36,424 nt of DNA. It comes from a virus (Duplodnaviria > Heunggongvirae > Uroviricota > Caudoviricetes). Below, one piece after another: positions 15,993 to 34,946 of this stretch. Below the pieces are notes generated by a model. It saw only the letters and a program-made list of their open reading frames with translations. It was not told the origin of the DNA and did no database searches. The position numbers were made by a program, and so were the translations under genes. The first letter of the stretch is position 1. Every line of letters begins with the position of its first letter. Location: IMG/VR virus record IMGVR_UViG_3300046474_000274, positions 1 through 36,424 of that record; one strand, written 5' to 3'.

Positions 15993-16018
15993 GCGTTTCC
16001 GCATGCGTCTCGCTATAA
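15993..16018 (+). promoter_or_regulatory. Promoter-like motif, GCGATCCC-N11-GCTATAA class
   Basis: GCGTTTCC-N11-GCTATAA ahead of the 16047 gene. Confidence 0.55.
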
Positions 16019-16046
16019 GTCTTCTCAGAACAGCGAAAGACCAGTT

Positions 16047-16799
16047 ATGCCGCATTTGATTACTGCTTATTCAACCGAACTCGAAGCCGAGCGCTGCCCG
16101 ACTTTCGAGAACGACTTCATCATCTCCAACTTCATCTCTACGAAGTTTCAGGGGTTTGATCGGGAAGGCTGGAACAGCAAGTGGTTCGACTACCGGCATA
16201 TGACGCTCCTGCAGGCGACCTGCGCCTACATGGAAGCCTATGGTGACGTTTACCGTCGCATCTATGCCCGCGAGTTCGACCGCGACCGCGCCGAGCATGT
16301 AAAGCCGATGAATATCGATCTGATCCTTGGCGCTCTACGTCCGGGCGGCCAGCAGGATCAGAAGAAGATCACCAAGGCGAAGAAGCAGCTCGTTGGTTGC
16401 TGGCGCGGCCGTCAGATCGCCGACATGATCGGCTGTCCCTATGATGTCTATCTCGATCTCGCCTTCACCTACCGGATGCGCCGCTGGCAGCAGAACAACA
16501 TGCCGCAGCCGACGCACCTTTACGACCTGCGCGTCGTGGAGCAGATCGTCGACCGCTGGGAGGAGCTGCAGGCTTCCCGGCTCTATCTGGCCGAGCACTC
16601 GGCATACCTGGTCGAGAACTACCAGGATCTCCCGCAGCAGAACGCCTATCACGAATGGCTGTTCAAGCAGGCCAAGCTCCGCAGCAATCCGGCCGAGTTC
16701 ATCGCCCGCTTCATCGAGGAGCATTTGCTCCCGGTCGACAAGGTGCAGGCGCGCTCCGATCTCCCGCCCTGGGAAATGATCGAGCGTTACCTGCAGTAG
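16047..16799 (+). CDS. Hypothetical protein upstream of helicase (possible helicase loader/initiator)
   Basis: Real start is probably ATG 16047, after the promoter motif; the listed 15627 start overlaps phoH. Function is inferred from position only. Confidence 0.6.
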   Translation: MPHLITAYSTELEAERCPTFENDFIISNFISTKFQGFDREGWNSKWFDYRHMTLLQATCAYMEAYGDVYRRIYAREFDRDRAEHVKPMNIDLILGALRPGGQQDQKKITKAKKQLVGCWRGRQIADMIGCPYDVYLDLAFTYRMRRWQQNNMPQPTHLYDLRVVEQIVDRWEELQASRLYLAEHSAYLVENYQDLPQQNAYHEWLFKQAKLRSNPAEFIARFIEEHLLPVDKVQARSDLPPWEMIERYLQ

Positions 16800-16821
16800 T
16801 CCCTTAGCGATTTAGCTATAA
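16796..16821 (+). promoter_or_regulatory. Promoter-like motif, GCGATCCC-N11-GCTATAA class
   Basis: GTAGTCCC-N11-GCTATAA ahead of the helicase. Confidence 0.5.
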
Positions 16822-16851
16822 TCGAAATACGACGCTTTGCGCGTTAAGACA

Positions 16852-16869
16852 TAAGTAAGCACTTACTTA
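16852..16869. promoter_or_regulatory. 18-bp palindromic operator ahead of helicase
   Basis: TAAGTAAG-CA-CTTACTTA ending 4 nt before the first ATG. Confidence 0.75.
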
Positions 16870-16873
16870 GGAA

Positions 16874-18208
16874 ATGGAGTCTCGAATGTCCGAAGAGACG
16901 GCACAGTTCGAATTCGATCCTTCCTTCCAGACGAAGGTTGCTGCGCTGGTGATGCGCGATAGCAACTTCGCGATGAACACCAAGGATCTGATCAAGCCGG
17001 AGTATTTCACTGAGGACGCAGCAGGCACCCTCGTTCGTATCGTGCATGAGCATGTGAAGACCTATCGGTCCGTGCCCGACATGAAGATCCTGCCGACCAT
17101 CTTGCGCGACGAGATCGCCGCAAAGCGCATCCGCCCCGACATGGTGGATCCCGTCAAGAAGATGGTTCGCGAGATCCTGACCACTGATCTCTCAAACCCG
17201 GCCTTCGTCCAGGACAAGGTTGTCGACTTCGCCAAGCACCAGGCCGTTGAAGGCGCGATCATGCAGATCCTCCCGCTTCTCGAGAAGGGGAAGGATTGGG
17301 ACAAGATCGGCCAGCTCATGAAGGACGCCGTCTCGGTCGGCGCAGTAACCGACGGTGGCGACTACGACTACTTCGGGGAAATCGGCAATCGCACCAAGCA
17401 GCGCCACGACCTGAAGGCAGGCAAGGTGGTGCGTTCCGGCATCACGTCCGGCTATGCCGCGATCGACGCTTATCTCTATCACATGGGCTGGGGCCGCAAG
17501 GAACTGTCCTGCATCATGGGCGCTGCCAAGGCTGGCAAGTCCATGTCGCTCGGCGACTTCGGCAAGAACGCGGCGATGGCCGGCTACAACGTGTTCTACG
17601 ACAGCCTCGAAGTGTCGAAGGACATCATCGCCTCGCGTGTCGATGCTGCGCTTTCCGATACGCTGATGAAGGATCTGCACAAGGATCCTGATGCCGTCGA
17701 AAGGGCAATTGCAGCGATCGCTGCAAAGTCCGGCCGGTTCAAGTTGCGCGACCACGCATCCGGCACCTTAAAGCCCACGCAGCTCTACCGCCTGCTGGAG
17801 CAGTATCGCGCCGAAGGCATCATCTTCGACCTGGTGATCGTGGACTACGCCGACATCATGGCCGCGGAATATCGCTCCGACAGTCTGCAGGAGAACCTGC
17901 GCACGATCTACGTCGACCTTCGCGCCATTGCCTACGAAGCCAACTGTGCGCTGCTGACGGCCACTCAGACGAACCGTGACGGCGCGAAGGCTGCGACTGC
18001 CAAGGCGACCGACGTTGGTGACGACTGGAACAAGGCCAGGACCGTCGACATCATGATCGGCATTAATGCCACCGACGCCGAAAAGGCCGCGAATGAAGCC
18101 CGCCTGACCTGGCTGCTCGCGCGTAACGGCGAAAGCGGCTTCTCGCTGCGCATCAAGCAGGATCGCGCCAAGATGCAGTTCCTGACCAAGGTCATCGGGA
18201 AGGAATAA
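16874..18208 (+). CDS. dnaB: Replicative DNA helicase (DnaB/SF4-like)
   Basis: Walker A MGAAKAGKS, SLEVS, IVDYAD, TATQTNR, ARNG motifs; adjacent to primase. Confidence 0.85.
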   Translation: MESRMSEETAQFEFDPSFQTKVAALVMRDSNFAMNTKDLIKPEYFTEDAAGTLVRIVHEHVKTYRSVPDMKILPTILRDEIAAKRIRPDMVDPVKKMVREILTTDLSNPAFVQDKVVDFAKHQAVEGAIMQILPLLEKGKDWDKIGQLMKDAVSVGAVTDGGDYDYFGEIGNRTKQRHDLKAGKVVRSGITSGYAAIDAYLYHMGWGRKELSCIMGAAKAGKSMSLGDFGKNAAMAGYNVFYDSLEVSKDIIASRVDAALSDTLMKDLHKDPDAVERAIAAIAAKSGRFKLRDHASGTLKPTQLYRLLEQYRAEGIIFDLVIVDYADIMAAEYRSDSLQENLRTIYVDLRAIAYEANCALLTATQTNRDGAKAATAKATDVGDDWNKARTVDIMIGINATDAEKAANEARLTWLLARNGESGFSLRIKQDRAKMQFLTKVIGKE

Positions 18209-18210
18209 GC

Positions 18211-19332
18211 ATGGCTCGCCTGTCATTCGAACAGATCCAGGAAGAACTCGACATGGAGTTTCTCCTGGACCGGGAAAGCGTTTCCTATCGCGAGACGCGC
18301 GGCTCCTCGGGCATTCAGCTCAACATCAAGACCTGCCCGAATCCCGCCTGCCGCGACGAGCGCTGGCGCACCTATTTCGGGATCGATAACGGGCAGGGTA
18401 ACTGCTTCGTCTGTAACACGTCCTTCAACAAGCTCCAGTATGTGAACTATCAGTTCGACCACGGCGCCGACAACTGGCGCGCCACCTTCGCGGCGTGCGA
18501 GGAGATCATGCGCGACCAGGGCTACAAGCCCAAGCGCAAGGCAATGGTCCAGGTTATCCACGGCGAGGTCACCCTTCCGGTCTCCGATCCGCTTCCGCTG
18601 CCCGACGGCTCGAACCTGGCCTATCTCGAGCAGCGCGGCTTCGACGCCGAGATCGCCAAGTATTTCGAGCTCCGCTGGTGCCAGTTCGGCTGGTGGAAGT
18701 TCAAGGATGCCGAGGGCGTGACCCAGACGCAGAACTTCGGAAACAGGATCATCATTCCCGTCTTCGACCTCGACGGCAGCTTGAAGACCTTCCAGGGCCG
18801 CGATCTCACCGGAACCTCGCCCAAGAAGTATCTCTTCCCGATGGAGCTTCCGGGAACGGGGCGCTATTTGCTCAACGGGCACAATGTCGTTGCCTGTGAC
18901 CATGTGGTGATGGGCGAGGGGGCTTTCGACGTGGCCGCGATCAAGGTCGCCTTCGACGCCGATCCCGAGCTCCGCAGCGTCGTCCCGGTCGGCTCCTTCG
19001 GCAAGCATCTGTCTTTTGGTTCGTCCGACGGCGATGACCAGCTCGGCCGCTTCATCCAGTTGAAGGCGAGGGGAGTGACGACCGTCACGATCATGTGGGA
19101 TGGCGAGGTCCCGGCGCTGCTGTCGGCCCTCGACGCAGCCAAGATCCTCACCGGCATTGGCTTTAAGGTGCGCATTGCGCTGCTGCCGTTCGACAAGGAT
19201 CCGAACGAAGTCACCGGCGATGTCGTGCGCAAGGCTTTCTACGCCGCGGCGCTCTGGACGCCGAGCCTCGACATTAGATGGCGCCTCAAGAACCCCTATG
19301 CGGCAGAGGCAAAGAAGAAGAGCGCTGCCTGA
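18211..19332 (+). CDS. DNA primase (Zn finger plus TOPRIM)
   Basis: CPNPAC...CFVC zinc finger; RIIIPV, FQGR, MGEGAFD, WDGE, KDPNE motifs. Confidence 0.88.
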   Translation: MARLSFEQIQEELDMEFLLDRESVSYRETRGSSGIQLNIKTCPNPACRDERWRTYFGIDNGQGNCFVCNTSFNKLQYVNYQFDHGADNWRATFAACEEIMRDQGYKPKRKAMVQVIHGEVTLPVSDPLPLPDGSNLAYLEQRGFDAEIAKYFELRWCQFGWWKFKDAEGVTQTQNFGNRIIIPVFDLDGSLKTFQGRDLTGTSPKKYLFPMELPGTGRYLLNGHNVVACDHVVMGEGAFDVAAIKVAFDADPELRSVVPVGSFGKHLSFGSSDGDDQLGRFIQLKARGVTTVTIMWDGEVPALLSALDAAKILTGIGFKVRIALLPFDKDPNEVTGDVVRKAFYAAALWTPSLDIRWRLKNPYAAEAKKKSAA

Positions 19333-19337: not shown

Positions 19338-19355
19338 TAAGTAATCGAATACTTA
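19338..19355. promoter_or_regulatory. Core-type operator TAAGTA-N6-TACTTA
   Basis: TAAGTA-ATCGAA-TACTTA, just upstream of a promoter-like motif. Confidence 0.65.
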
Positions 19356-19364: not shown

Positions 19365-19390
19365 GCTTCCCAAGAGCGATCTCGCTATAA
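19365..19390 (+). promoter_or_regulatory. Promoter-like motif, GCGATCCC-N11-GCTATAA class (upstream element weak)
   Basis: GCTTCCCA-N11-GCTATAA. Confidence 0.45.
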
Positions 19391-19397: not shown

Positions 19398-19997
19398 ATG
19401 AACGACGACGAAGCGGACGAACGAAAGCGCAAGTTAGGCCGCGCGTTCCTCGCTCGGACGAAGAGGAAAGCCATGCTTGTTTACCCGATTAAGTCCAGGA
19501 CGATCTCCCTCGATCACCAGGCCGGCACCAAGTCCTATCACCTGCACCTGATCGAGGCGGCGAACGGCCACTGCGTCGTTATCAACCGCTGGGGCAAGAC
19601 GGGCGCATTCGGCGAAATGAAGGTCGAGACCTTCGACAGCCCGATCGCGGCGCGAAAGGCAATCGACAAGAAGGAAAACGAAAAGACCCGCAAGGGCTAT
19701 CGCCAGGTGGGCGCGGCGCGCGAGACCTCGGCCGAGGACGTATCCGAGCTCGTCAAGGCGATCGGCATGGCCCCGTTCAACAAGATGGGCGCTACGGCCG
19801 TCGAATGGCTCGACCCTGACTTCGACACGTCCGGCATGCGCGAAGCCGACGGTCCTCAGTATGACGAGGACACCGGCCGCAAGCTCGACACGGCGCGCAA
19901 GGCGAACATCGAAGAGGCGCGCGCCGAAGCGCGCCGGCGTGAAGTCGAGACTGCCCAGCAGGCATATGCCGAAAACGATCTCTATGGAAGGTTTTGA
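19398..19997 (+). CDS. WGR-domain protein
   Basis: KSYHLHLI...VINRWGKTGAFGEMKVETF...ARKAIDKKENEKTRKGY matches the WGR domain pattern; alternative start ATG 19473. Confidence 0.7.
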   Translation: MNDDEADERKRKLGRAFLARTKRKAMLVYPIKSRTISLDHQAGTKSYHLHLIEAANGHCVVINRWGKTGAFGEMKVETFDSPIAARKAIDKKENEKTRKGYRQVGAARETSAEDVSELVKAIGMAPFNKMGATAVEWLDPDFDTSGMREADGPQYDEDTGRKLDTARKANIEEARAEARRREVETAQQAYAENDLYGRF

Positions 19998-20575: not shown

Positions 20576-22105
20576 ATGGACGCTTATGCAGTCTCGCGCC
20601 TGATCGAAGACATCGGCGCTACGTCGTCGCGCACGGAGAAGGAGACGCTCGTCGGCCAGCTCGGCGCATCCGATCTCGGCAAGTTCGTGCTCACCTGGGC
20701 CTATAATCCCTTCGTCACCTACGGCATCACGCCGGCAAAGTCGGACAATGCTGGCAGGTTCAAGATGGAGTTCAAGGAGAGCCTGGTCGAGCCGCTGCTC
20801 AAGAAGCTGTCGAGCCGCGAGCTGACCGGCATGGCCGCGGAGCGCGAGATCGGCGAGGTCATGGGCGCGCTCGATGAGGATGGCGCCAATCTGCTCTTCC
20901 TGATCCTGTCGAAGGATCTGAAGTGCGGCATTGCCGCAAACACGATCAACCAGGCGGTGCCCGGCCTGATTCCGGTCTTCTCCGTCCAGCGTGCGCAGGC
21001 TTATGAAGCCAAGCGCATGAAGAAGACCATGAAGGGCGAGTTCAAGCTCGACGGAAACCGCAACACCTTCATGTCGAAGGATGGCAATGGCGGGTTCTTC
21101 TCGCGCACCGGCAACCGTGTCGCGCCGCTCGACTTCCTTGTTCCGCCTGTCATGGTGGCTGCATACTACGCCATGCAGAAGGGCAGTGATGCCTTGAAAA
21201 AGGTGCTGATTGGCGATCGCGAGCCTGGACATGCAAGCCTGAACTTCGTCCTCGACGGCGAAGCCATGATGACGCTGTTCGAGGAGACCGGCGCATTCCG
21301 GCGCAAGGATGAAGACGCGCTTGGCGCTGAGCTGCACCTCTACGACATGATGTCCTACGAGGACTTCGATGCCGTTGGTGCTGTCGGCGAACCGCTGCAC
21401 GTCCGTCGCACCTGGGTCGCCGAGTTCGTCAAGCTCGCCAAGGAAGGACTCAAGCGCACTGATGGGGAGGACGCTATCCAGATCGTCCCGCAGTATTTCG
21501 TCAACGACGATAACGAGGTGCAGGCGCTCTTTGAGCGCGCCCGCTCGATGACGCTCGCCAAGTATCTTGCCCGCGGCGACGCCGAGAAGGAAAAGCTGCT
21601 GCTCACCAAGACGATCGACAAGGCGACCGGCCAGCCCAAGGTGCTCGAAGGCATCGTGGTCAAGGATCCCGACGCCCTCTACGAGAAGAAGAAGTCCCAC
21701 GCCTGGATGAAGCTCAAGGCGGAAGAAACCCTCGATCTGCCGATCATCGGTGTCTTCAACGGCCAGGAACATTCCAAGTATGAGAATATCCTGGGCGGCG
21801 TGATCGTCGATCACAAGGGCGTCGAGGTGCGGGTCGGAGGAGGGATCTCCGATGACGCTCGCACCTATCTCTGGTCCCTCTGGGAGAAGGACGCAAAGAT
21901 CATGGGTGTCGATCCGCATGTCGGCTTCAAGGGCGCAGTCCATGACTACGCTGATCTGAAGTCCCTCGGCGCAACCAATCTCATGACCCGTCTCCTCGAG
22001 ACCGAGTTCATGGAAGTGACGCCGGACGGATCACTCCGGCACCCGCGCGCCATTCGCTTCCGTGACGACAAGGACGGAGAAGTCGAAAGCAAGGAGGCCG
22101 CGTAA
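20576..22105 (+). CDS. ATP-dependent DNA ligase
   Basis: EFKLDGNR (KxDG), LDGE, LYDMM, EGIVVK, WMKLK, SLRHP motifs. Confidence 0.92.
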   Translation: MDAYAVSRLIEDIGATSSRTEKETLVGQLGASDLGKFVLTWAYNPFVTYGITPAKSDNAGRFKMEFKESLVEPLLKKLSSRELTGMAAEREIGEVMGALDEDGANLLFLILSKDLKCGIAANTINQAVPGLIPVFSVQRAQAYEAKRMKKTMKGEFKLDGNRNTFMSKDGNGGFFSRTGNRVAPLDFLVPPVMVAAYYAMQKGSDALKKVLIGDREPGHASLNFVLDGEAMMTLFEETGAFRRKDEDALGAELHLYDMMSYEDFDAVGAVGEPLHVRRTWVAEFVKLAKEGLKRTDGEDAIQIVPQYFVNDDNEVQALFERARSMTLAKYLARGDAEKEKLLLTKTIDKATGQPKVLEGIVVKDPDALYEKKKSHAWMKLKAEETLDLPIIGVFNGQEHSKYENILGGVIVDHKGVEVRVGGGISDDARTYLWSLWEKDAKIMGVDPHVGFKGAVHDYADLKSLGATNLMTRLLETEFMEVTPDGSLRHPRAIRFRDDKDGEVESKEAA

Positions 22106-22109: not shown

Positions 22110-22137
22110 GCCGCCCGAGCCTAATAGCTCGGGCGGC
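22110..22137. terminator. Probably bidirectional intrinsic terminator between ligase and the convergent small ORF
   Basis: Perfect 11-bp stem GCCGCCCGAGC/GCTCGGGCGGC with a 6-nt loop; T-rich on + (GTATTATTT) and on - (TTGTTTA). Confidence 0.75.
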
Positions 22138-22140: not shown

Positions 22141-22233
22141 TTATTTAGAGAACAACTCCACTAAAACGATTATAGTTCCAATAATCTGAGCTATATTTGC
22201 CAATATAGCCAGTATTACCAGCATCTTATTCAC
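22141..22233 (-). CDS. Small hydrophobic peptide (30 aa, MNKMLVILAILANIAQIIGTIIVLVELFSK); candidate type I toxin or exclusion peptide
   Basis: Hand-translated; GTG start at 22233 (alternative ATG 22224) with AAAGGA upstream; the stop lies 3 nt from the terminator stem; AT-rich; below the ORF-track length cutoff. Confidence 0.55.
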   Translation of the reverse strand: MNKMLVILAILANIAQIIGTIIVLVELFSK

Positions 22234-22334: not shown

Positions 22335-23459
22335 TTAGCGGCGCGCAAGATCTTTCGATAGGCGTTGAATCTCGTTTGCTAAATTCAACTGTCCGGCTTT
22401 GATCAAACGGACCATCGCCCTGAAATAGCCGCCCGCGTTCTTGATCGGATCCGATCCTGGCGCGGGCCGCGTTTGCATCTGCACCACGTAAACCAGCGTG
22501 GCCGACGCGCCGAGCGCCCCGATTTCACGGGTCGCCTCCTCCCAGCCGGACGCGGACACCCCAAAAGCGCCCCGCATGCGCGACACGCCCATAATCAGGT
22601 CGCGGTCGCTGCGCACATCGCCTATAAACTCCATCGCATCAGGGCAAGCTCTCGCCAAATCGCCGGCGTCCAGGCTGATGCTCGGCCGTTCCGGCTCCCT
22701 CACATCATCAGAGCCGTTGTTACAAGACTGGTCAGGGGCATATTTGTTGTTGTCTTTGTGACGGCAAGAATTGCCGGCAGAGGCGGCGTAATATCTACCT
22801 TCTGCTTCTTCCCTGATCGAGCGCCAGGCTTCTCGGGCGTCGTCGGCCGATCCCGCTCCAGACCTGCGTGGCGTGACTCTAGCGAGCTCAAGGGCGCGCG
22901 CCGTCAGTTCGGTGATGTCGATGCTCGGGAAAGTCTCTGCAAGCGCCCTGAGAGCCTCCTGCGCCGATCTGCGATGGATGGTGAGCTCGTCAAAGGCTGC
23001 CGCTCGCTCGCGCTCCATATCTTTGATCGCCTGGAGCTGATCGCGGAGCTCCGGCAGGCGCGCAAGGAGAGGGGAGAGGTCGAAGCCATATGCCTTGACG
23101 ATCTGGCCCCGCAGCGATCGCTGCGCGAACCGTTTGCCGTTCGGGCTGTCCTTGGCGCCGATCACACCATCGGCAAGCAGCCGGGCAAGCGCATAGCGAA
23201 CGGATCGCTCTGGAATGCCGGTGCGCTCGACCAGGAATTCGTTCGACGGCCAGACGAGCATCCGGTTTTCGATCAGCTCCCCACCGTAGACGCCGACGAG
23301 CTGGTCGAGGACGAACCTGCAGCTTGACGGTAGTTTCAGCACGCGGGCAGCCGCCCGCGCCGCCTCGTAGAGGACTTGTTTGTCCGCTGTGTCTGGCTCT
23401 TCGGCCGACGGGAGCGTCGGCTTTAGAGCGCGCCAGCCGGACGACTGTGCGCTTCTCAT
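22335..23459 (-). CDS. repC: Plasmid replication initiator RepC (repABC-family type)
   Basis: VWPSNEFL, SVRYALARL, KDSPNGKRF, AYGFDLSPL, IKNAGGYFRAM motifs. Start ATG 23459 with AAAGGGA RBS, preferred over 23501. AT-richer middle near 22730-22800, where oriV lies in characterised repC genes. Confidence 0.92.
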   Translation of the reverse strand: MRSAQSSGWRALKPTLPSAEEPDTADKQVLYEAARAAARVLKLPSSCRFVLDQLVGVYGGELIENRMLVWPSNEFLVERTGIPERSVRYALARLLADGVIGAKDSPNGKRFAQRSLRGQIVKAYGFDLSPLLARLPELRDQLQAIKDMERERAAAFDELTIHRRSAQEALRALAETFPSIDITELTARALELARVTPRRSGAGSADDAREAWRSIREEAEGRYYAASAGNSCRHKDNNKYAPDQSCNNGSDDVREPERPSISLDAGDLARACPDAMEFIGDVRSDRDLIMGVSRMRGAFGVSASGWEEATREIGALGASATLVYVVQMQTRPAPGSDPIKNAGGYFRAMVRLIKAGQLNLANEIQRLSKDLARR

Positions 23460-23508
23460 GGTTATCCCTTTCACAGGGCAACGCTTCGCCGTTCGCCTCA
23501 AATAGGCG

Positions 23509-24056: not shown

Positions 24057-24082
24057 GCGATCCCTTTCAAGTCGCGCTATAA
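24057..24082 (+). promoter_or_regulatory. Promoter-like motif, GCGATCCC-N11-GCTATAA class
   Basis: Exact GCGATCCC-N11-GCTATAA. Confidence 0.6.
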
Positions 24083-24145
24083 GTCATGTTGTCGAAAGCG
24101 ATACGTCCAGGCGCTACGAACCGCATAATCAGGGAACTATTTATT

Positions 24146-24538
24146 ATGGCAACGCAAACAGGAACACCGACGCGGTTTTCCAACTACATATTTAAGAAAC
24201 TCATGGAGTCGCCGAAGTCTCAGAAGGAGATCGCGGACGCCGTGGGCTACAAAAACCAAAACATGATCACCATGCTCAAGCAGGGTCATGTAAAGCTCGC
24301 ACTCGACAGAGTGCCGGCAATGGCTAAGGCTCTCAACATAGATCCGCTCGATCTGTTCAAGATCGCGCTGACCCAATTCTATGACGACGCTGCCTGCCGG
24401 ATGCTGACAGACATCATAGAGGCTGGCAATTCCGCCCAAGAGCGGAAGATACTCCAGATAGTGCGCGACGCTTCCGGCGATGCCACGCCCCTCCTGACAC
24501 CAGAGCGCGAGAAGAAGCTGGCAGAGATATTCGGCTAA
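24146..24538 (+). CDS. XRE/Cro-CI-type HTH transcriptional regulator (candidate repressor)
   Basis: SQKEIADAVGYKNQNMITMLKQG...LDRVPAMAKALNIDP HTH; divergent from the RHH-repC unit; ATG 24146 preferred over 24086. Confidence 0.8.
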   Translation: MATQTGTPTRFSNYIFKKLMESPKSQKEIADAVGYKNQNMITMLKQGHVKLALDRVPAMAKALNIDPLDLFKIALTQFYDDAACRMLTDIIEAGNSAQERKILQIVRDASGDATPLLTPEREKKLAEIFG

Positions 24539-24569
24539 TTCGCTCGCGACCCAATGCGATTCGGCATTG

Positions 24570-24600
24570 AGCCTGCTATATCAGTGGCAGGCTTTTTCTT
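24570..24600 (+). terminator. Intrinsic terminator after the XRE gene (overlaps a GCTATAT promoter-like motif)
   Basis: AGCCTGC / GCAGGCT stem followed by TTTTCTT; GCGATTCG-N11-GCTATAT at 24556-24581 overlaps it. Confidence 0.6.
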
Positions 24601-27331: not shown

Positions 27332-27365
27332 AAAAAAAAGTAAGCGGGGACTTATTTCCCCGCTT
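27331..27365 (-). terminator. Minus-strand intrinsic terminator between the cobT- and cobS-like genes
   Basis: On the - strand: AAGCGGGGA-AATAAG-TCCCCGCTT-AC-TTTTTTTTT. Confidence 0.65.
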
Positions 27366-27382
27366 GCGTCCCACGTCAGAAA

Positions 27383-27400
27383 TAAGTAAGAGCTTACTTA
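27383..27400. promoter_or_regulatory. 18-bp palindromic operator ahead of the cobS-like gene
   Basis: TAAGTAAG-AG-CTTACTTA; TTGCGT at 27364-27369. Confidence 0.75.
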
Positions 27401-27440
27401 TAGCGCAACGCGAAAGCGCTTCATCACAAGAGGGAATGAC

Positions 27441-28757
27441 ATGAGCCAGGCTATTGAAGCTGGCGCAGCGGCAACTGCGTCGGACGGGAAGATTCTGTGC
27501 CACATCGACAATGTGCGCGTTCATACAATCCAGGGTCACATCAAGAAGACCCATCCCGATTGGACCATCGAGCGGTATCAAGCCGAGTTTCCCGGCGAGC
27601 CGCTTTTCTCTGAGACCGCAAAGGCGTTGATGGCGAAAGCCGAGGCTGAAAAGGCCCAGGCAGCCGCTGTAGCGCCCGGCGCCGATGCCGCTGATATTCA
27701 GGCGCAGATGGTTGCGGCAGCGACCGGTGTCGCCGCGCCGAAGATCACCGTCAAGCAGGCGTTCTTCCACGAGCTGTTCGAACTCGGCAACGCGCCGGCC
27801 GCTCTGTCGGCCAAGGGTCAGCCGATCCCGATCAAGGTTCTCGAAGGCCACGACGCCGGCTCGGCCGACTATCTGCCGGACCTCGATAAGTCCTACGTCT
27901 TCAACATCGACCTGTTGAAGAAGGTCATCATCGGCTTTGAGCTGAACATGCCGACCTATCTCTGGGGCTTTCACGGCACCGGCAAGACGACGGTCCTGCA
28001 GCAGGCGGCAGCCCGCACGCGCCGTCCGTTCATTCGTGTTCAGCATACGATCAACATGCAGGAGTCCGACGTGCTCGGACAGTGGACGGTTCGCTCCAAG
28101 GCTGTCGAAGTCGAGGTGCTCGATCCGACCGGCGCCAAGGTCAAGGTCATTCAGCAGCAGTCCGTCACCGAGTTCCAGCTCGGGCCGCTTCCGATGGCAA
28201 TGATCAACGGCTGGGTCTATTGCGCCGACGAATACGACTTCGCGATGCCCTCCGTCACCGCGGTCTATCAGCCGGTTCTCGAAGGCCAGGCGTTGCTGAT
28301 CAAGGACGCTCCTCCGCACTTCCGCAAGATCGTGCCGCATCCGAACTTCCGCTTCGTCGCGACCGGAAACACCAACGGTGTCGGCGATGAAACCGGCCTC
28401 TACCAGGGCACGCTGGTTCAGAACGCAGCCAACTATTCGCGCTTCGCGATCACCGAAGAAGTCGAATACATGGAAGCGAAGATCGAGACCGCGATCCTGC
28501 AGTCGAAGACCGGCATCGATGCTGCATCGGCTTCCAAGATCGTCAAGATGGCGAACGAAGTCCGCAAGCTGTTCCGTGATGGCAAGATCACCATGACGGT
28601 CTCGCCGCGCGAGCTGATCCGCTGCGCGTCTCTTGGTATCGCCTACGGCGGCAATTGGACGCTCGGCATGGAGCTCGCCTTCGCCAACCGTCTGTCGCGC
28701 GTCGATAAGAAGGTCGTGCAGGAATACATGCAGCGCGTATTCGGAGGCGCAGCATGA
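27441..28757 (+). CDS. cobS: CobS/MoxR-like AAA+ ATPase with N-terminal zinc-finger-like extension
   Basis: GFHGTGKT Walker A, CADEYD Walker B, HPNFRFVATGNT, NAANYSRF, SPRELI. The symbol denotes family only. Confidence 0.85.
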   Translation: MSQAIEAGAAATASDGKILCHIDNVRVHTIQGHIKKTHPDWTIERYQAEFPGEPLFSETAKALMAKAEAEKAQAAAVAPGADAADIQAQMVAAATGVAAPKITVKQAFFHELFELGNAPAALSAKGQPIPIKVLEGHDAGSADYLPDLDKSYVFNIDLLKKVIIGFELNMPTYLWGFHGTGKTTVLQQAAARTRRPFIRVQHTINMQESDVLGQWTVRSKAVEVEVLDPTGAKVKVIQQQSVTEFQLGPLPMAMINGWVYCADEYDFAMPSVTAVYQPVLEGQALLIKDAPPHFRKIVPHPNFRFVATGNTNGVGDETGLYQGTLVQNAANYSRFAITEEVEYMEAKIETAILQSKTGIDAASASKIVKMANEVRKLFRDGKITMTVSPRELIRCASLGIAYGGNWTLGMELAFANRLSRVDKKVVQEYMQRVFGGAA

Positions 28758-29398
28758 TCAAGCGCGATCCGAAGCTCGACCGCCCGCAGGTCAAGGCATT
28801 CGCGTATAAGGTTCTCAAGCGCGTTCACGCGCTTGGGGCCAAGTCGCAGACCCTGGATGATATCGAGGGTGAACTGTGGATCGCCTGGTGCCTGGCCTGC
28901 GACCGTTTCGACCCGACGGCCGGCGCCGCCTTCAAGACGTTCCTCTACCGCGGCATGCGCCTGCATATCAACCGCTGGATCGAGAAGACGTTCGAACGGT
29001 TCCATGACGAGACCGTCGCCGCGTCCCTCGAGGCGAGCTACGGCTCTGAGGAAGCATCTGGCGCAAACGGCTCGACGCTCGGCGAAGTCATCGCTGACAC
29101 GGCCGAACGCCAGGACGAGACCTTCCAGAAGGAGAATTGCTTCGCCTACGCCCTCACCCGCGTCTCTGACCGGGCAAAGCTGTTCCTGACGTTCCTGAAG
29201 GACAATCCTCCGGAGCTGATGGTCCGCATGAGGGATCTCGAGGCGAAAGCCGCACACGCCAAGGAGCTCGGCGTTTCCTACGCCATGCCCCACCGTATCA
29301 CCTCGGCCATGATCTTCGACTTCATGGGCGCCTCCCGCGTCGAACGTAAGCAGATTATGGACGAAGTCACCCAGATCGGGCGGCTGATTTCGAACTAG
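28754..29398 (+). CDS. Sigma70-family-like factor (regions 2, 3.2 and 4-like)
   Basis: DDIEGELWIAWCLACDRFDPTAGAAFKTF resembles region 2 (DLIQEG...AVEKFDP.RG.KFSTY); SLEASYG...STLGEVIAD resembles region 3.2; IFDFMGASRVERKQI resembles region 4.2. Confidence 0.68.
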   Translation: MIKRDPKLDRPQVKAFAYKVLKRVHALGAKSQTLDDIEGELWIAWCLACDRFDPTAGAAFKTFLYRGMRLHINRWIEKTFERFHDETVAASLEASYGSEEASGANGSTLGEVIADTAERQDETFQKENCFAYALTRVSDRAKLFLTFLKDNPPELMVRMRDLEAKAAHAKELGVSYAMPHRITSAMIFDFMGASRVERKQIMDEVTQIGRLISN

Positions 29399-29405: not shown

Positions 29406-29954
29406 ATGACGACCATTCCCCATCTGGCGCCGGGCTGCTTTGGTTCAGCCCTCGCATTCAAAAAGGACGACACCGTCTGCCGCGGATGCAAGTTCTTGAG
29501 CTTGTGTGAGCCCGCTCACCTCGAGGCTCAGAAGGTCTTGCGCGAGCGCTACGGCATCAAGACGACCCAGGAAGTGCTTGCCGATCAGAAGCAGGCGCGT
29601 GAAGCCGAAAAGGCCGCCCGTGAGGCGAACCGCAACGAAGCAGTCTTGGTGCTGCCGAAGAAGACCCAGGAACTGATCGATAGGCTCGATCGTGGAAATT
29701 ACGATGTGAAGGGCAAGTTCGCCCGCGGTGAGAACCCGTTCGGACAGTCCATGCGCTTCATGCAGATCGTCGGCCATCTGCTCCTCAATCTCAAGAACGT
29801 CCGGCTCGACCGGGCGCTGATCGCAACCGCCTTCGTCAAGAAGCTCGAATGGCAGCAGGGCACCGCAGACGCGCATGCCCGCATGGCAATTCAGGCGCTC
29901 GAACACGTCGGCGCAATCATCAACAACGACGGCGTTATCGCCCTCAAGGGGTAA
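29406..29954 (+). CDS. Hypothetical protein with N-terminal four-Cys cluster
   Basis: PGCFG...VCRGCKFLSLC; sits between the sigma-like gene and dnaE. Confidence 0.65.
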   Translation: MTTIPHLAPGCFGSALAFKKDDTVCRGCKFLSLCEPAHLEAQKVLRERYGIKTTQEVLADQKQAREAEKAAREANRNEAVLVLPKKTQELIDRLDRGNYDVKGKFARGENPFGQSMRFMQIVGHLLLNLKNVRLDRALIATAFVKKLEWQQGTADAHARMAIQALEHVGAIINNDGVIALKG

Positions 29955-29958
29955 TTCG

Positions 29959-32900
29959 ATGCACTCGATCCTTGCAGCGCGGACTGATTTCTCAGTCGGC
30001 GAAAGCATCCTCACGACCAAGGTTCTGATCAAGAACGCCGTCGATGCGGGCGCAAAGGCGATCGCCATGACCGACACGATGTCCGTCACCGGTATGATCG
30101 ACTTCACCAACAAGGCCAAGGCCGAAGGCTTGAAGCCGGTCATCGGCTGCCGGCTGCGTCTGTCTGATAATCCGACCTGGCGCCCTGGCGACGGCGAGAA
30201 GAAGAAGGATATGCCGCGTTCCTACTTCCTGACCGTCTACGCGCTCAAGGAAGCCGGCATCAAGGCGATCTTCCGGCTGCTGACGCTGGCGAACTCCGAC
30301 GACCGCTTCTATTACGTGGCCAAGCTCGGCTTCGAGGATCTCTATGCGGAGTTGAAAGGGTTGGCCGGCGACGATCTCGCGATTGTGCTTGGTGATGCCC
30401 ATTCGGTTCTGGAGCATCCGAATGTCGACGATATCGTCCTGGAGCTCAATGACCAGGTTGAAATGATCTATGCGCCGCTGGTCCCGATCGACACGCCCTA
30501 TTACGGGCGCTTGAACGAATTGGCACTGCGGCAGATCAGTCTTGGCGCCGTCAAGCCGATCGTCGTGCGTCCGGCCTTCTACGGCCAGGGTGAAGCCGAC
30601 ACCCAGGAGATCATGACCGCGATCTCCGAGAACCATAAGGTGACCGATCCATGGTTCCGCTCGCGCCACAATCGCGACATGCACGTCATGGGTAACGCCG
30701 AGCTCGTCGGCGAAATGAAGAAGGCTGTCGCCCATCTGGTCAAGCGCGGCAATGATCCGTCGGCTACCGCTTTGAAGTTCAAGGAAGGGCTGTTCAACAC
30801 CGCAATGCTGGTCGCCGCCGTAGAATACGAATGGAAGAAGGCTGCGGTCTCGCTTCCGATCATGGCGCCGGACGAGTTTGCGGCCGTCGTCGAGGAGTGC
30901 AAGAAGGGCTGGAAGCTCCGTTTCGCCGCGCCGATCTTCGGGCATCAGCCGGACGCGAAGGAACTGGTCGAGGTCTATAAGCCGCGCCTCGCCTACGAGC
31001 TCGAAACCCTCAAGCGGTTGAACTTCTCGGGCTACTTCCTGCTCGTGCAGGACGTGGTGCAGTTCGCGAAAAACTCGGGCATCATGGTCGGTCCTGGTCG
31101 TGGTTCCGTGGGCGGATCCCTTGTCGCTTATCTGATGGGCATTACCGAGTGCGATCCGATCCGCTTCGGACTGCTGTTTGAGCGCTTCATCAATCCGGAA
31201 CGTATCGACTTGCCCGACGCCGATCTCGACTTCATGTCCGAGCGCCGGCACGAGATTTTCGAATACCTCACCAAGAAGTATGGCGAGAAGCGGGTAGCTG
31301 GCGTCAACAACTACGGAACGCTCGGCTCCGCATCCGCGATCCGCGATGTCGGCCGCGTGACGCTCATCCCCGAAAAGGACTATTCCGTCTCGAAGTTCGT
31401 GCCGAAGCTGCACGGCCAGAACGTGCCGCTGCCCGAGGCGCGCAAGCAGGTCGCCGATATTGACGACTTCGCCAATCACTATCCGGGCCACTGGCCGATC
31501 ATGGAGCGCCTCGAGGGCACGATCCGCAATTTCAGCCAGCACGCGGGCGGCGTCATCGTCGGCGGGGTCGATATCGTCGACCGTGCGGTCGTTGAGCGGC
31601 GCAAGGACGGCAACGTCGTCTGCTGGGACAAGCGCATCGTTGAAGACCAGGGTCTGGTCAAGATGGACGTTCTCGGGCTCAACACGCTCGACCTGATGAC
31701 CCTGACGCTCGACTATATCCGCGAAAATACCGGCAAGCGTCTCGATCTTAACCGCATCCCTCTCGATGACGAGAAGGTGCTGGCGAACTTCGCCAAGGCG
31801 AACACGACCGCGATCTTTCAGTTTGAGTCCGGAGGCATGCGCCGGCTCTTGAAGGAGCTCGGCTCGACCGGCGTCATCACGTTTGAGGATATCACGGCTG
31901 CAACCGCTCTCTACCGCCCTGGTCCGATGGAGTCGGGGATGATGGACAGCTTCTATCTGCGCAAGCAGGGCCATGAGGAAATCGAATACGACCATCCGCT
32001 GATGGAGCCGGTGCTCGAGGAAACCTTCGGCGTTATCGTCTACCAGGAACAGGTCATGAAGATCTCCCAGGTGATCGCCGGCTACTCCGGCGCGGCCGCT
32101 GACAAGCTCCGCAAGATCATGGGTAAGAAGCTGCCGGAGGAGATGAAGAAGGAGCGGAAGAAGTTCTGCGACGGCTGTGTCGCGACGATCGCCTGCACCG
32201 AGGATTGGGCCGGTGCCCTTTTCGACAAGATCGAAGGCTTCGCCGGCTACGGCTTCAATAAGTCTCACTCGGTCGAATACACCCTGATCTCCTACCAGGC
32301 CATGTATTTGAAGACCTACCATCCGGCCGAGTTCTACGCCGCGGCGTTGACCGTTCAGAAGGAAGAGAAGCTGACGGGTATCATCCGTGATGCGAAGTCG
32401 CTTGGTATCGACGTGTCGATGCCCGACATCAATATATCGACCGATCGCTTCGAAATGGCAACGCCTGTGCGCCTGGTCATGCCGCTGCAGCGCATCAAGG
32501 GTCTGTCCGAAAAGGCGACCACCGCAATTCTCGAGGCCAGGAAGTCGGGACTGTTTGCCGACAAGAACGACTTCCTGGCCCGCGTGGAGAAGCGGGTCTG
32601 TAATAAGCGCGTCCAGGAGGCTCTCGATCTCGTCGGCGCCTTTGCGCGCATCGAGCCTGGTCAGAAGGCCGCAAACGATCCGAGCCGCATCAAGGACCAG
32701 ATCGAGCTGCTGCCGGGCCTGGTCGCTGGCCACGTTCCCATCGAGCACGAGCTGGAGAAGGACAAGGACACGAAGGAAGCGCTCGGCGAGCTCGTGGACG
32801 AATACCGCGCAGCGCATGGCCCCAAGGCAACGATGACTGACGGATATCCGGTCAAGCCGTTCTTTGGCCGCGATGCCGACTTCATGATCATTTCGGACGC

Positions 32901-33324
32901 GCCTGGCAACGAAGAGGACACGGGCGGCGTCATGGGCTTCTCGATGTCGAACAACGCTGTGATCGAGGCTGTGGAAGCGGCATCGCTCGACCGTTCGAAT
33001 ATCTATTGGACGGCCCTGATCAAGCGCCCGAAGCGCGGCAAGCAGGTTACGCCCGACGAGATTGCCACCTATTGGCCGTATCTGGAGCGGGAGATCGAAC
33101 TGCTCAAGCCGCCCGTTATCGTGCTTCTCGGCTCGCAGACGGTTCGCCACTTTATCCCGGACTTCAAGGGCAAGGCATCCGACGCGGCCGGCAAGGTGAT
33201 CTACTCCAAGAAGTATGACGCCAACGTCGTGATCGGCTTTAGCCCCGGTGAGATTTATCACGATCCGGACAAGCAGCAGAACATGAACGAGGTGTTCGCC
33301 TCAGTCGCGGATTGCTTATCATGA
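29959..33324 (+). CDS. dnaE: DNA polymerase III alpha subunit (DnaE) with C-terminal UDG-like domain
   Basis: GPGRGSVGGSL, LLFERFINPER, PDADLDF, KMDVLGL, ALYRPGP, YQEQVM, YGFNKSHS. Start ATG 29959 preferred over 29875. Confidence 0.95.
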   Translation: MHSILAARTDFSVGESILTTKVLIKNAVDAGAKAIAMTDTMSVTGMIDFTNKAKAEGLKPVIGCRLRLSDNPTWRPGDGEKKKDMPRSYFLTVYALKEAGIKAIFRLLTLANSDDRFYYVAKLGFEDLYAELKGLAGDDLAIVLGDAHSVLEHPNVDDIVLELNDQVEMIYAPLVPIDTPYYGRLNELALRQISLGAVKPIVVRPAFYGQGEADTQEIMTAISENHKVTDPWFRSRHNRDMHVMGNAELVGEMKKAVAHLVKRGNDPSATALKFKEGLFNTAMLVAAVEYEWKKAAVSLPIMAPDEFAAVVEECKKGWKLRFAAPIFGHQPDAKELVEVYKPRLAYELETLKRLNFSGYFLLVQDVVQFAKNSGIMVGPGRGSVGGSLVAYLMGITECDPIRFGLLFERFINPERIDLPDADLDFMSERRHEIFEYLTKKYGEKRVAGVNNYGTLGSASAIRDVGRVTLIPEKDYSVSKFVPKLHGQNVPLPEARKQVADIDDFANHYPGHWPIMERLEGTIRNFSQHAGGVIVGGVDIVDRAVVERRKDGNVVCWDKRIVEDQGLVKMDVLGLNTLDLMTLTLDYIRENTGKRLDLNRIPLDDEKVLANFAKANTTAIFQFESGGMRRLLKELGSTGVITFEDITAATALYRPGPMESGMMDSFYLRKQGHEEIEYDHPLMEPVLEETFGVIVYQEQVMKISQVIAGYSGAAADKLRKIMGKKLPEEMKKERKKFCDGCVATIACTEDWAGALFDKIEGFAGYGFNKSHSVEYTLISYQAMYLKTYHPAEFYAAALTVQKEEKLTGIIRDAKSLGIDVSMPDINISTDRFEMATPVRLVMPLQRIKGLSEKATTAILEARKSGLFADKNDFLARVEKRVCNKRVQEALDLVGAFARIEPGQKAANDPSRIKDQIELLPGLVAGHVPIEHELEKDKDTKEALGELVDEYRAAHGPKATMTDGYPVKPFFGRDADFMIISDAPGNEEDTGGVMGFSMSNNAVIEAVEAASLDRSNIYWTALIKRPKRGKQVTPDEIATYWPYLEREIELLKPPVIVLLGSQTVRHFIPDFKGKASDAAGKVIYSKKYDANVVIGFSPGEIYHDPDKQQNMNEVFASVADCLS

Positions 33325-33936: not shown

Positions 33937-33962
33937 GCTCTCCGATCGCGAAATCGCTATAA
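33937..33962 (+). promoter_or_regulatory. Promoter-like motif, GCGATCCC-N11-GCTATAA class
   Basis: GCTCTCCG-N11-GCTATAA. Confidence 0.5.
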
Positions 33963-33988
33963 TTTCAGTATCAACAAGGAACCACAAC

Positions 33989-34564
33989 ATGACGACTCCC
34001 ACGACGGCCGACGCCGCGAAGGAGCAGACCTCCTATCAGGTCCGCGACTTCATCGATGCTGCACAGTTGAAGCGCGACCTCGCCTTCTCCCCGAACAATC
34101 TGACCGACGCCATGATCTCCCAGGCGTCCATGTTCTCATATTATGGCGTTCTCGCCGCTGACGCCGCAAAGCAGGTCGACGTGGTGAAGATGCTCCTGGA
34201 GAACACCGAGGCTGCTGTCTCGCAGATCGTCCGTAACGAAGCGGCAACGGCCGGCGAGAAGATCACCGAAGGCGCGATCGCGACCCGCATCGCCCGTCAT
34301 CCGCGCGTCGTCGGGATGAAGAAGGCGCTGAACGATGCCAAGCGCGTCGAGGCGATCGGCAAGACCGCTGTTGAGTCCTTCCGGCACCGGCGCGACATGC
34401 TGGTGCAGCTCGGCCTGATCTCCCGCGAGGAGATGAAGGGTGAGTTGTCCATCCGCGAAAAGTCGGCACGCGAAGACGCGGTCGAGCAGTCCAAGCAGAG
34501 CACGCTCGATCGTCTTGCGCGCCGCAATGGCGTTCAGGCAGCGGACGAAAATTCCGTAAATTAA
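33989..34564 (+). CDS. Helical protein, possibly a UvsY-like recombination mediator
   Basis: KITEGAIATRI...HP...ALNDAKR...AVESFRHRRDMLVQLG resembles T4 UvsY-like proteins from memory; near the gp32-like SSB. Confidence 0.5.
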   Translation: MTTPTTADAAKEQTSYQVRDFIDAAQLKRDLAFSPNNLTDAMISQASMFSYYGVLAADAAKQVDVVKMLLENTEAAVSQIVRNEAATAGEKITEGAIATRIARHPRVVGMKKALNDAKRVEAIGKTAVESFRHRRDMLVQLGLISREEMKGELSIREKSAREDAVEQSKQSTLDRLARRNGVQAADENSVN

Positions 34565-34566
34565 GT

Positions 34567-34612
34567 GCAATCCCTCGTCATTTACGCTATAAAGTAAGTA
34601 AGCACTTACTTA
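34567..34612 (+). promoter_or_regulatory. Promoter-like motif followed immediately by an 18-bp operator
   Basis: GCAATCCC-N11-GCTATAA (34567-34592), then TAAGTAAG-CA-CTTACTTA (34595-34612). Confidence 0.75.
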
Positions 34613-34641
34613 GTGTGACGCCCTTCAAAAGGAAGATCCTC

Positions 34642-34905
34642 ATGGACGCATTCATTGCATATCTCCGTAAGTTCCTTGGCCTGGAACTGACCATCGATCG
34701 TGTCGTCGCCCGTCAGAGCAAGGTCGTTCGCGACCTCGACAAGCTCGAAACGTTGCACGTCACCAAGGCTGAAAAGGCGGAGAGCAAGGCAGCCAAGGCC
34801 GCAGCCAAGGCCGAGGAAGCTCGCCTCGAAGCTGCTGACGCAGCCGAACTGTCGAACAACTGGAAGAATTCTGGCCTGGTCCGTCCGTCCCGCAAGGCGG
34901 CCTGA
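34642..34905 (+). CDS. Small Ala/Lys-rich hypothetical protein (87 aa)
   Basis: ATG 34642 with AAAGGAA upstream; coiled-coil-like AESKAAKAAAKAEEA. Confidence 0.6.
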   Translation: MDAFIAYLRKFLGLELTIDRVVARQSKVVRDLDKLETLHVTKAEKAESKAAKAAAKAEEARLEAADAAELSNNWKNSGLVRPSRKAA

Positions 34906-34920
34906 CCACTCGGGACTTGA

Positions 34921-34946
34921 GCGATCCCATCGACACATCGCTATAA
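34921..34946 (+). promoter_or_regulatory. Promoter-like motif, GCGATCCC-N11-GCTATAA class, followed by an operator half-site
   Basis: Exact GCGATCCC-N11-GCTATAA; TAAGTAAG at 34944-34951. Confidence 0.6.

Follow-up and report, generated by a model that had tools for sequence, protein, structure and literature searches.

A Conserved, Family-Restricted Promoter Class and a Sigma-70-Family Protein Encoded by an Alphaproteobacterial RepC-Type Phage-Plasmid

The window considered here is the first 36.4 kb (36,424 nucleotides) of the single-contig genome (120,956 bp, 60% G+C) of a virus of the Caudoviricetes (IMG/VR record IMGVR_UViG_3300046474_000274). Between positions 15,993 and 34,946, it carries eight sites that belong to a larger class, GCnnTCC-N11/12-GCTATAA, referred to below as class A. 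These sites behave as a real class of transcription promoters, which is conserved and which is restricted to this virus family. The window also encodes, at 28754-29398, a genuine sigma-70-family protein, and, on balance, we favour the reading that this phage sigma, perhaps with the product of the neighbouring gene, is what reads the class A promoters.

The genome is about 81% identical at the DNA level to the Rhizobium phages RHph_X66, V1VFA-S, and B1VFA; plasmid pLM21S1 of Sinorhizobium sp. LM21 and an R. beringeri plasmid are further relatives, and RHEph10 is more distant. These relatives are RepC-bearing phage-plasmids (PMC12509600, PMC4447125). No account of gene regulation in these phages or plasmids was found in the literature searched.

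The Class A Promoters

A preliminary description of the window listed eight GCTATA(A/T) sites on the + strand (at 16012, 16815, 19384, 24076, 24575, 33956, 34586, and 34940), each with an 8-mer exactly 11 nt upstream and none with TTG at the 17-nt spacing, and placed them before replication and regulatory genes. All of this is borne out: the sites and the quoted 8-mers are present at these distances, TTG at that spacing occurs at 0/8 sites (a TTG at 34940 lies two bases too far upstream, and a TTGACT at 16012 lies farther upstream), and none of them falls at 1-15 kb, where the tail and lysis genes lie. The genes that follow are, in order, a hypothetical gene after phoH, dnaB, a WGR-domain gene, the gene for an XRE regulator, a small open reading frame (ORF) plus cobT, a 191-aa ORF, another small ORF, and the gene for a gp32-like single-stranded DNA-binding protein (SSB). 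GCTATAW occurs 11 times in the window versus 1.75 times expected, a number that was reached in 0/100 shuffles.

A position weight matrix trained on 21 sites of this genome was used to scan the whole element and its relatives, and it recovered the class in this genome and in two independent IMG/VR genomes, G001 (119,863 bp) and G002 (120,831 bp). There are 24 matrix sites on the + strand here, all between 16 and 80 kb, and 2 on the - strand; the corresponding numbers are 26 and 4 in G001 and 24 and 3 in G002, versus 0-1 per strand in Markov shuffles. The exact pattern GCNNTCC-N11/12-GCTATAA is found in 10, 12, and 9 copies in the three phage genomes, all on the + strand. When the upstream box alone was scored at GCTATAW anchors, it exceeded the 95th percentile of random positions at 23/32 anchors in G001 and 17/22 in G002, so the box is not a by-product of the anchoring of the sites.

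The consensus was derived from 67 pooled sites, with the T and the first A of TATAA set at -12 and -11. Its upstream core comprises G at -33 (61/67), C at -32 (56/67), T at -29 (52/67), C at -28 (58/67), and C at -27 (67/67), and is preceded by a weaker ACCT at -40 to -37. Its downstream part consists of C at -15 (55/67) and an almost invariant GCTATAA at -14 to -8. T is rare both at -35 (2/67) and at -7 (6/67). About 25 near-identical copies serve nearly all the replication and regulatory genes; they are intergenic, are on the strand of the genes, and lie 7-80 nt upstream of start codons in the region between 16 and 80 kb.

The preliminary description had made the class depend on the conservation of the upstream 8-mer in homologous elements, and 8/8 window sites have orthologues in both G001 and G002. 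Among 15 promoters with orthologues in both genomes, the blocks from -40 to -26 and from -15 to -8 are conserved, with an identity of about 0.3-0.55 in the spacer and flanks, in an analysis that is partly circular because the matrix picked the orthologues. In an exact-pattern scan of IMG/VR, multi-copy matches occurred only in the relatives of this phage, and unrelated phages gave single chance matches only. The class had been termed private, which is true of the two-block promoter as a whole and not of its -10 half, which is the alphaproteobacterial housekeeping -10.

The exact composite was found 54 times in 121 bacterial genomes from the host order, to which Chelativorans belongs, versus about 152 times for a reversed control, a comparison low in power, because the host consensus CTTGAC-N17/18-CTATAT is also unenriched (9 versus 13 for the control in 26 genomes). 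Enrichment in host genomes was therefore rejected as a means of separating the hypotheses. A loose genome-wide scan for CTTGAC-like promoters gave no excess over shuffles.

The class had also been described as one for middle genes. The promoter class itself stands, and the word "middle" is not established: a consensus scan of the region 15.9-35.1 kb detected two sigma70-like sites versus 5.0 expected, none of them at class A promoters, and no canonical sigma70-type promoter before any gene there. Class A must, therefore, also serve whatever is transcribed first in this region.

It might be argued that the motif is not a promoter but a signal at the level of RNA or DNA (for processing, packaging, or replication) that contains TATAA by chance. 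This would be consistent with the location of the -10 within a covarying inverted repeat at two sites (the hairpin at 24569-24594 and the orthologues of the site at 38889), and with the occurrence of the companion palindrome at intercistronic places without a promoter. However, the bias towards the gene strand is strict (24 versus 2 sites, and 10 versus 0 for the exact pattern), the sites are intergenic, just before start codons, and sometimes directly past an intrinsic terminator (48352), the two blocks stand at promoter spacing with a free spacer between them, and an Rfam scan of the window gave zero family matches. We consider this explanation highly improbable.

The Phage Sigma Factor

The 214-aa ORF on the + strand at 28754-29398 matches Pfam Sigma70_r2 (PF04542) with an E-value of 9.8e-8 and 32.1 bits, against a gathering cut-off of 24 bits. 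The same match is found in 17/17 homologues, and the ORF also matches the broad PHROG sigma family phrog_351. A profile made from these 17 members has PDB matches to SigA and RpoS chains, at region 2 (best E 2e-7) and, weakly, at region 3.2/4.1; in this search, the phage sigma profile prefers group 1/2 sigmas.

The AlphaFold model (predicted local distance difference test score, pLDDT, 77) has helices at residues 10-83, corresponding to sigma2, a disordered stretch at 84-115, resembling the 3.2 linker, and helices at 120-213, probably corresponding to sigma4 with a helix-turn-helix. This C-terminal domain is predicted to have five helices. Residues 1-83 of the model superpose on the sigma2 domains of sigma70, sigmaA, sigma28, and SigE with a root mean square deviation of 1.5-1.7 A over about 70 residues (Z 9-10), and residues 1-214 align over their full length to sigma28, SigH, SigB, and residues 375-605 of sigma70. 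By inspection only, the motif G-A-S-R-x-E-R-x-x-I resembles the region 4.2 helix. Of the motifs originally proposed for this protein (regions 2, 3.2, and 4), region 2 is thus found by Pfam, profile, and model, region 3.2/4.1 has the weak profile match, and region 4 is suggested by the model and not detected by Pfam. The protein is, nonetheless, a genuine member of the sigma-70 family, with a sigma2 domain, a disordered linker, and a probable sigma4 domain, and it may bind core RNA polymerase and direct promoter-specific initiation.

None of the curated subfamily cut-offs is reached. The commonest sub-threshold matches are to generic sigma70, FliA/WhiG, and SigB/F/G models; among the NCBIfam matches of the 17 members, FliA/WhiG (11/17) and SigB/F/G (9/17) are the commonest specific ones. 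The score for the FliA-WhiG model TIGR02479 is 13.1 bits (cut-off 189.6), and the disordered residues 84-115 leave the protein without a sigma3 domain. Despite the two-domain architecture, the protein does not belong to the extracytoplasmic function (ECF, group 4) sigmas either, since it scores 25.8 bits with TIGR02937 (cut-off 42.9); the class A promoters carry neither the AAC nor the CGT motif of the ECF type.

Homologues of the sigma, which are 181-223 aa in length, fall into 79 clusters. Almost all of them lie on contigs 106-122 kb long, and the genera represented are Rhizobium, Ensifer, Agrobacterium, Methylobacterium, Aureimonas, Phaeobacter, and Azospirillum. The sigma was present in all the related full-length genomes that were examined.

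Proposed Recognition of Class A by the Phage Sigma

If the phage sigma reads class A, host core RNA polymerase carrying the 214-aa protein would do so by means of two contacts. The sigma2 domain would take the extended -10, cGCTATAA (-15 to -8), flipping A-11 and ignoring -7 as sigma28 does, and sigma4 would take the upstream element from -40 to -26, with its core G-33 C-32 nn T-29 C-28 C-27; the product of the next gene, which combines four cysteines with a winged helix, may contact the invariant TCC. Class A would, in this way, serve essentially all the non-structural operons (16-80 kb) of this RepC-type Rhizobium phage-plasmid, and the 18-bp palindrome located just past most of the -10 elements would provide a separate repressor layer. 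We infer both the assignment of proteins to elements and the timing.

The first argument for this reading comes from a comparison with the host. The SigA promoters of rhizobia and Agrobacterium are of the types CTTGAC-N17-CTATAT and CTTGNN-N18-TATNNT (PMC3384568), and R. etli SigA and E. coli RpoD have an identical region 2 (PMC4943231). Class A shares the -10 core CTATA with these promoters, yet the absence of TTG at -35 and the depletion of T at -7 argue that it is not of the host type. Promoters of the form TTG-N18-TATWGT, flanked by palindromes, precede the major head gene and the candidate major tail (Ig-domain) gene in the same genome, so two types of recognition coexist there.

The second argument comes from sigma28, for which the consensus is TAAAGTTT-n11-GCCGATAA (PMC2859248) and for which the -10 in the open complex is (-15)GCCGATAA(-8), where A-11 alone is flipped and -7 is unread (PMC12784957). 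With ATAA at -11 to -8, GC-rich positions at -15 to -13, and no constraint at -7, class A has a layout equal to that of the sigma28 consensus.

The third argument concerns a clade composed of RHEph10 and L115 (support 100/99), in which KCTATTM replaces GCTATAA behind the same TCC(G/C)-N11. This clade alone has IEG(I/L) instead of (R/N)GM in region 2.3 of the sigma, with a 3-aa insert in RHEph10. Since R. phaseoli is infected by phages of both the KCTATTM and the GCTATAA clades, the switch in the -10 is not accounted for by the host sigma. The same reading is favoured by the two-domain build of the phage sigma, with sigma28, SigH, and SigB among its full-length structural matches, by the presence of the sigma in all the related full-length genomes examined together with a motif that is multi-copy in relatives only, and by the CTTG that is added to the box at the promoter of the sigma operon alone.

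Several observations weigh against this assignment. Pfam detects no region 4 in the sigma ORF. The sequence GCTATAA fits the rhizobial CTATAT and the extended -10 of Caulobacter sigma73 housekeeping promoters, GCtANAWC, which likewise lacks T at -7 (PMC13004042), so that host SigA could read this -10. The same -10 is found across lineages in which the sigmas are only 30-40% identical, a constancy most readily accounted for if an invariant host sigma reads it. The base-contacting positions of sigma4.2 vary between lineages that have the same TCC core, and the neighbour's recognition helix hardly varies at all, which points to the neighbour as the reader of the box. Moreover, each covariation occurs on a single branch (n=1 each), and class A promoters and three palindromes precede the sigma gene, for which the candidate bootstrap promoter shows only a weak -10. 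A covariation between sigma4.2 and the box (an A-rich box with NRIY in the Methylobacterium-type lineages) was also considered and set aside as not discriminating, because these are sister groups and the winged helix changes on the same branch.

The Cys4 Winged-Helix Protein and the Possible Role of Host SigA

The 182-aa product of the gene at 29406-29954 (+ strand) has four invariant cysteines near its N-terminus, C11, C25, C28, and C34 (C-X13-C-X2-C-X5-C), and a C-terminal winged helix-turn-helix in its predicted structure (pLDDT 80.6). The closest folds to the latter are the DNA-binding domains of Fur/PerR, MecI, IdeR, and LexA, with middling scores (Z 7-8.6). This gene lies directly 3' of the sigma gene in 15/15 loci of a first set, and no such ORF was found in two later, more distant loci. 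The recognition helix, HARMAIQAL, is nearly invariant in all the lineages that keep the TCC core and becomes HATQAFQAL where the box becomes AAAC(C/G)CC; sigma4.2 is far more variable between lineages. A search of the ESM Atlas with the protein returned unnamed viral clusters only. The protein is a candidate either for an activator that works with host sigma or for a co-factor of the phage sigma. The preliminary description had proposed the encoded sigma or, alternatively, an activator with host sigma70; both alternatives are retained, and an activator candidate can now be named next to the sigma gene.

According to the second of these alternatives, host SigA reads GCTATAA, a phage activator at the box around -30 replaces the -35 contact, and the phage sigma serves other promoters. 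This is how MotA/AsiA act at the middle promoters of T4 and Lpa at the late promoters of P1. The best candidate for the activator would be the Cys4 winged-helix protein, with the XRE protein less likely, given that the former has a DNA-binding fold and a recognition helix that changes with the box; its fold matches are, however, middling. In addition, phages that encode a sigma usually produce it in one temporal class for the transcription of the next, as with T4 gp55 and SPO1 gp33/34. The core of the box at -29 to -27 lies downstream of a normal -35, and the whole element from -40 to -26 exceeds the footprint of one sigma4 domain. The -10, finally, equals the housekeeping consensus of alphaproteobacteria (PMC13004042, PMC3384568) and stays constant between phage lineages that are far diverged. 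Against this, T is depleted at -7 and -9/-8 are an invariant AA, which SigA does not demand, and neither a host sigma nor an upstream activator explains a clade-specific switch in the -10 within the same host species. Nor was another abundant class of non-host promoters found for the sigma to serve; the three late promoters seen look host-type. This alternative therefore strikes us as rather unlikely.

A variant of the phage sigma reading, which we advance tentatively and with less conviction still, would combine the two proteins in a split recognition: a minimal sigma (sigma2, linker, and sigma4, without sigma3) would read the extended -10 as sigma28 does and also a lineage-specific stretch around -33, while an obligate Cys4 winged-helix co-factor would read the TCC at -29 to -27, giving a two-component "-35" module across the 105-120 kb alphaproteobacterial phage-plasmids. 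An upstream element of 14-15 bp, with its TCC downstream of the normal -35, and a recognition helix that tracks the TCC would fit such a sigma/co-factor pair as well as they would fit an activator with SigA. If this were true, the Cys4 co-factor (possibly metal- or Fe-S-binding) could tie the lytic programme to the redox or metal state.

A further explanation would be that the SigA holoenzyme acts alone, that a near-perfect extended -10 and the lax demand for a -35 known from alphaproteobacterial primary sigmas leave the box dispensable or a modulator, and that control is exerted only by the palindrome repressor. The "transcriptional laxity" of R. etli SigA maps to region 4 (PMC4943231), and the -10 is host-like. 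Nearly all class A promoters have their own operator palindrome, as would befit an intrinsic activity in the lysogen, and something must be transcribed first after infection from a region, at 16-35 kb, that has no canonical promoters. But selection on the box is strong (C-27 in 67/67 sites and a footprint from -40 to -26 between genomes that are about 80% identical), it differs by phage lineage, and TTG and T-7 are avoided at class A although they are used elsewhere in the same genome; the lack of enrichment of the composite in the host order points the same way, in a test of low power. That SigA suffices is, we think, improbable.

Relationship to Known Systems

The phage sigma would work like sigma28 (FliA) in promoter layout, yet it is not a FliA-WhiG member. 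Both promoters consist of an 8-mer, an 11-nt spacer, and an 8-bp extended -10 that runs from GC-rich to ATAA (TAAAGTTT-n11-GCCGATAA for sigma28 and GCGCTCCC-n11-(c)GCTATAA for class A), and neither has a conserved T at -7. The modelled phage sigma aligns over its full length to sigma28 complexes, and there are the sub-threshold FliA/WhiG matches. In contrast, the upstream elements differ in sequence, the phage sigma has no folded sigma3 and scores 13 bits against the FliA/WhiG cut-off of 189.6, its profile matches region 2 of SigA/RpoS better than that of FliA, and class A controls phage replication genes rather than flagella.

Sigma cascades encoded by phages include those of SPO1 (gp28 and gp33/34), T4 (gp55/gp33), and phiEco32 (gp36). 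The proposed system would resemble them in that a small phage sigma redirects the host core RNA polymerase to uniform phage promoters of a non-host type, and in that a small partner gene accompanies that for the sigma. It differs in having an alphaproteobacterial host and a temperate RepC phage-plasmid as its setting, in covering early and replication genes instead of late ones, and in having a -10 that resembles that of the host. No sequence kinship to a characterised phage sigma was detected, the sole match being the broad phrog_351.

The middle promoters of T4 (MotA/AsiA) and the late promoters of P1 (Lpa) resemble class A in that a host-like -10 is preceded by a phage-specific box near -30 in place of the -35. 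The position of the class A box (-33 to -26) and its distance of 11-13 bp from the -10 fit this scheme, and a phage DNA-binding protein is a candidate reader of the box. Class A does not keep T-7, and the element also encodes a complete sigma. No MotA, AsiA, or Lpa homologue was identified; the Pfam and PHROG scans of the proteins from 13.2-36.2 kb contained no MotA or AsiA family, though these families were not sought by name.

As regards the housekeeping promoters of rhizobia and Caulobacter (CTTGAC-N17-CTATAT and TTGaCg ... GCtANAWC), GCTATAA fits CTATAT at 5/6 positions and GCtANAWC at 7/8. Class A nevertheless has no TTG at -35 but GCnnTCC at -33 to -27 instead, and its uniformity is far above that of host promoters.

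Class A and the sigma are a new example of a known strategy based on phage sigmas and bring no new principle. RepC-type phage-plasmids of about 115-120 kb are, however, widespread in Rhizobium, Ensifer, Agrobacterium, Methylobacterium, and other alphaproteobacteria, as the 79 sigma clusters indicate. A promoter that is uniform, compact, and apparently orthogonal, together with its sigma and perhaps a co-factor, should allow the lytic/lysogenic circuit of these elements to be mapped directly and their operons to be predicted in new genomes from the class A motif, and this set could possibly serve as an orthogonal expression part for rhizobia. If the phage sigma does read class A, a promoter geometry like that of sigma28 would be used by a sigma without a sigma3 domain.

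Onset of Expression and the Palindromes

The position of the sigma gene behind class A promoters and three palindromes implies that a bootstrap is needed. The candidate for this role is a hybrid site on the + strand before the cobS-sigma operon, CTTGCGTCCC-N11-AAGTAAG (27363..27399, with the motif at 27363-27390), in which AAGTAAG is part of a palindrome. It is the sole box with a host-like CTTG, which could let host SigA start the cascade: SigA would first express the sigma gene from this CTTGCGTCCC promoter before cobS, and the sigma would then reinforce its own expression. CTTGC and CCC are retained in nearly all lineages; in several lineages, the -10 of the hybrid site is GCGATAA.

The operator palindrome differs between lineages: it is TAAGTAAG..CTTACTTA here, TCAGTCAATATTGACTGA in RHEph10 (L001), and TCAGTCAGCACTGACTGA in Methylobacterium, and a hybrid palindrome, AGTCAGC.CTTACT, is present in L014 and L017 (the lineages compared include pAMS5a, L005). 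Since the palindrome varies independently of the promoter box, the two signals have different readers.

The palindrome, AAGTAAG-N2-CTTACTT, is also found at intercistronic places without a promoter, both in the window (2174, 11421, 15123, 24895, and 27384) and elsewhere in the genome (101052, 106276, 110049, and 117967), sometimes immediately past a stop codon and 3-30 nt ahead of the next start codon. It may, therefore, not be limited to promoter occlusion and could act as a roadblock, as a hairpin in the RNA, or as a signal for translation. A putative late-promoter motif, TTTAGGCTTG, before the palindromes at 2174, 106276, and 110049 was discarded, since it proved to be the 3' end of the preceding coding sequence together with the stop codon.

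On the minus strand, GCTATAA abuts a palindrome, without a box, at 27398-27404 in the window, at 65965 in G002, and at 109018 in the genome. At 109018, the palindrome occupies the -35 position and the element points antisense into the scaffold gene, an arrangement conserved in G001 and G002. These minus-strand elements are possible antisense promoters.

Promoters of rhizobial appearance (CTTGCC, CTTGCG, or TTGTCA, followed by N18-TATWGT with T at -7) are located at 99,586-99,633, 109,024-109,095, and 116,227-116,299 of the genome. They precede, respectively, the terminase-region operon, the major head gene, and the candidate major tail (Ig-domain) gene, and the last two have two bracketing palindromes each.

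Individual Promoters and Gene Layout

The first class A promoter of the window, GCGTTTCC-N11-GCTATAA (15993..16018, + strand, as are all eight; matrix score 29.1), lies between phoH (15202-15954) and the hypothetical gene that follows it and has orthologues in G001 and G002. The second, GTAGTCCC-N11-GCTATAA (16796..16821, score 25.1), has a palindrome at 16853-16868 and precedes the gene for the DnaB-like helicase (16874-18208, with a DnaB_C match), which is followed by that for primase (18211-19332).

The third promoter (19365..19390, score 26.1) precedes the WGR-domain gene (19398-19997). The ATG of this gene, at 19398, is 7 nt past the -10 (7-12 nt in the relatives), so that the mRNA would be leaderless or nearly so. 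The palindrome of this promoter (19339-19354) is upstream of it instead of downstream.

The promoter GCGATCCC-N11-GCTATAA at 24057..24082 (score 28.7) has no palindrome and precedes the gene for the XRE-family helix-turn-helix regulator (24146-24538, + strand, Pfam HTH_3), which is beside repC in all relatives. The true start of this gene is 24146, as given by alignment with the relatives and by a match to a Shine-Dalgarno sequence plus ATG; an ATG at 24086, which as a leaderless start would have favoured reading by the host in lysogens, was dropped on the basis of this alignment. A sigma70-like site on the minus strand (24152-24125) was rejected as a promoter for the ribbon-helix-helix (RHH)-repC genes, as it is not conserved in relatives.

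After the XRE gene comes a weak member of the class, GCGATTCG-N11-GCTATAT (24556..24581, score 17.2). According to a terminator scan, the -10 of this site (24575) is in the loop of an intrinsic-terminator hairpin at 24569-24594; the stem of this hairpin has compensatory substitutions in the relatives and its GCTATA(A/T) is unchanged. The stretch 24569-24594 is an overlapping terminator and promoter.

At 38,870-38,930 of the genome and in the orthologues, the left arm of a covarying inverted repeat fills the promoter spacer, between box and -10, and the right arm is just before the start codon. The arms are GTGCCCAGCTT...AAGCTGGGCAC in G002 and CGCCCGACTT...AGGTCGGGCG in G001, and a weaker version is present at 24070-24110 in the window. 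Pairing of the arms could be possible only in read-through RNA or single-stranded DNA, and the repeat might mask the translation of read-through transcripts.

Beyond the CobT-like (24932-27331) and CobS/MoxR ATPase (27441-28757) genes, the sigma gene, and its neighbour, a gene for DnaE fused to UDG extends from 29875 to 33324. The promoter GCTCTCCG-N11-GCTATAA (33937..33962, score 24.6) then precedes the 191-aa ORF (33989-34564), and GCAATCCC-N11-GCTATAA (34567..34592, score 29.7), with a palindrome directly after it at 34596-34611, precedes a small ORF starting at 34642.

The last promoter of the series is a second GCGATCCC-N11-GCTATAA (34921..34946, score 28.1), before the gene for the gp32-like SSB (35024-36064). 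Directly past it, at 34947-34975, is an array of TAGCTA- or ATAGCT-type repeats (GTAGCTAGATAGCTGGATAGCTATC), with the TAGCTA-type repeats at 34950-34975. Such repeats occur at the same position in distant lineages (e.g., L101, L110, and L122) and also at about 70.5, 88.4, 93.1, 94.3, and 97.8 kb of this genome. These repeats may serve as a second set of operators or of iterons.

In the remaining part of the region, the gene for an ATP-dependent ligase (20576-22105) faces that for RepC (22335-23501, minus strand). In the gap that separates the ligase gene from the 3' end of repC lies a bidirectional terminator with a 12-bp stem (22110-22137), and past this terminator, at 22190-22209, is an AT-rich stretch with the palindrome GCTATAT-N6-ATATAGC.

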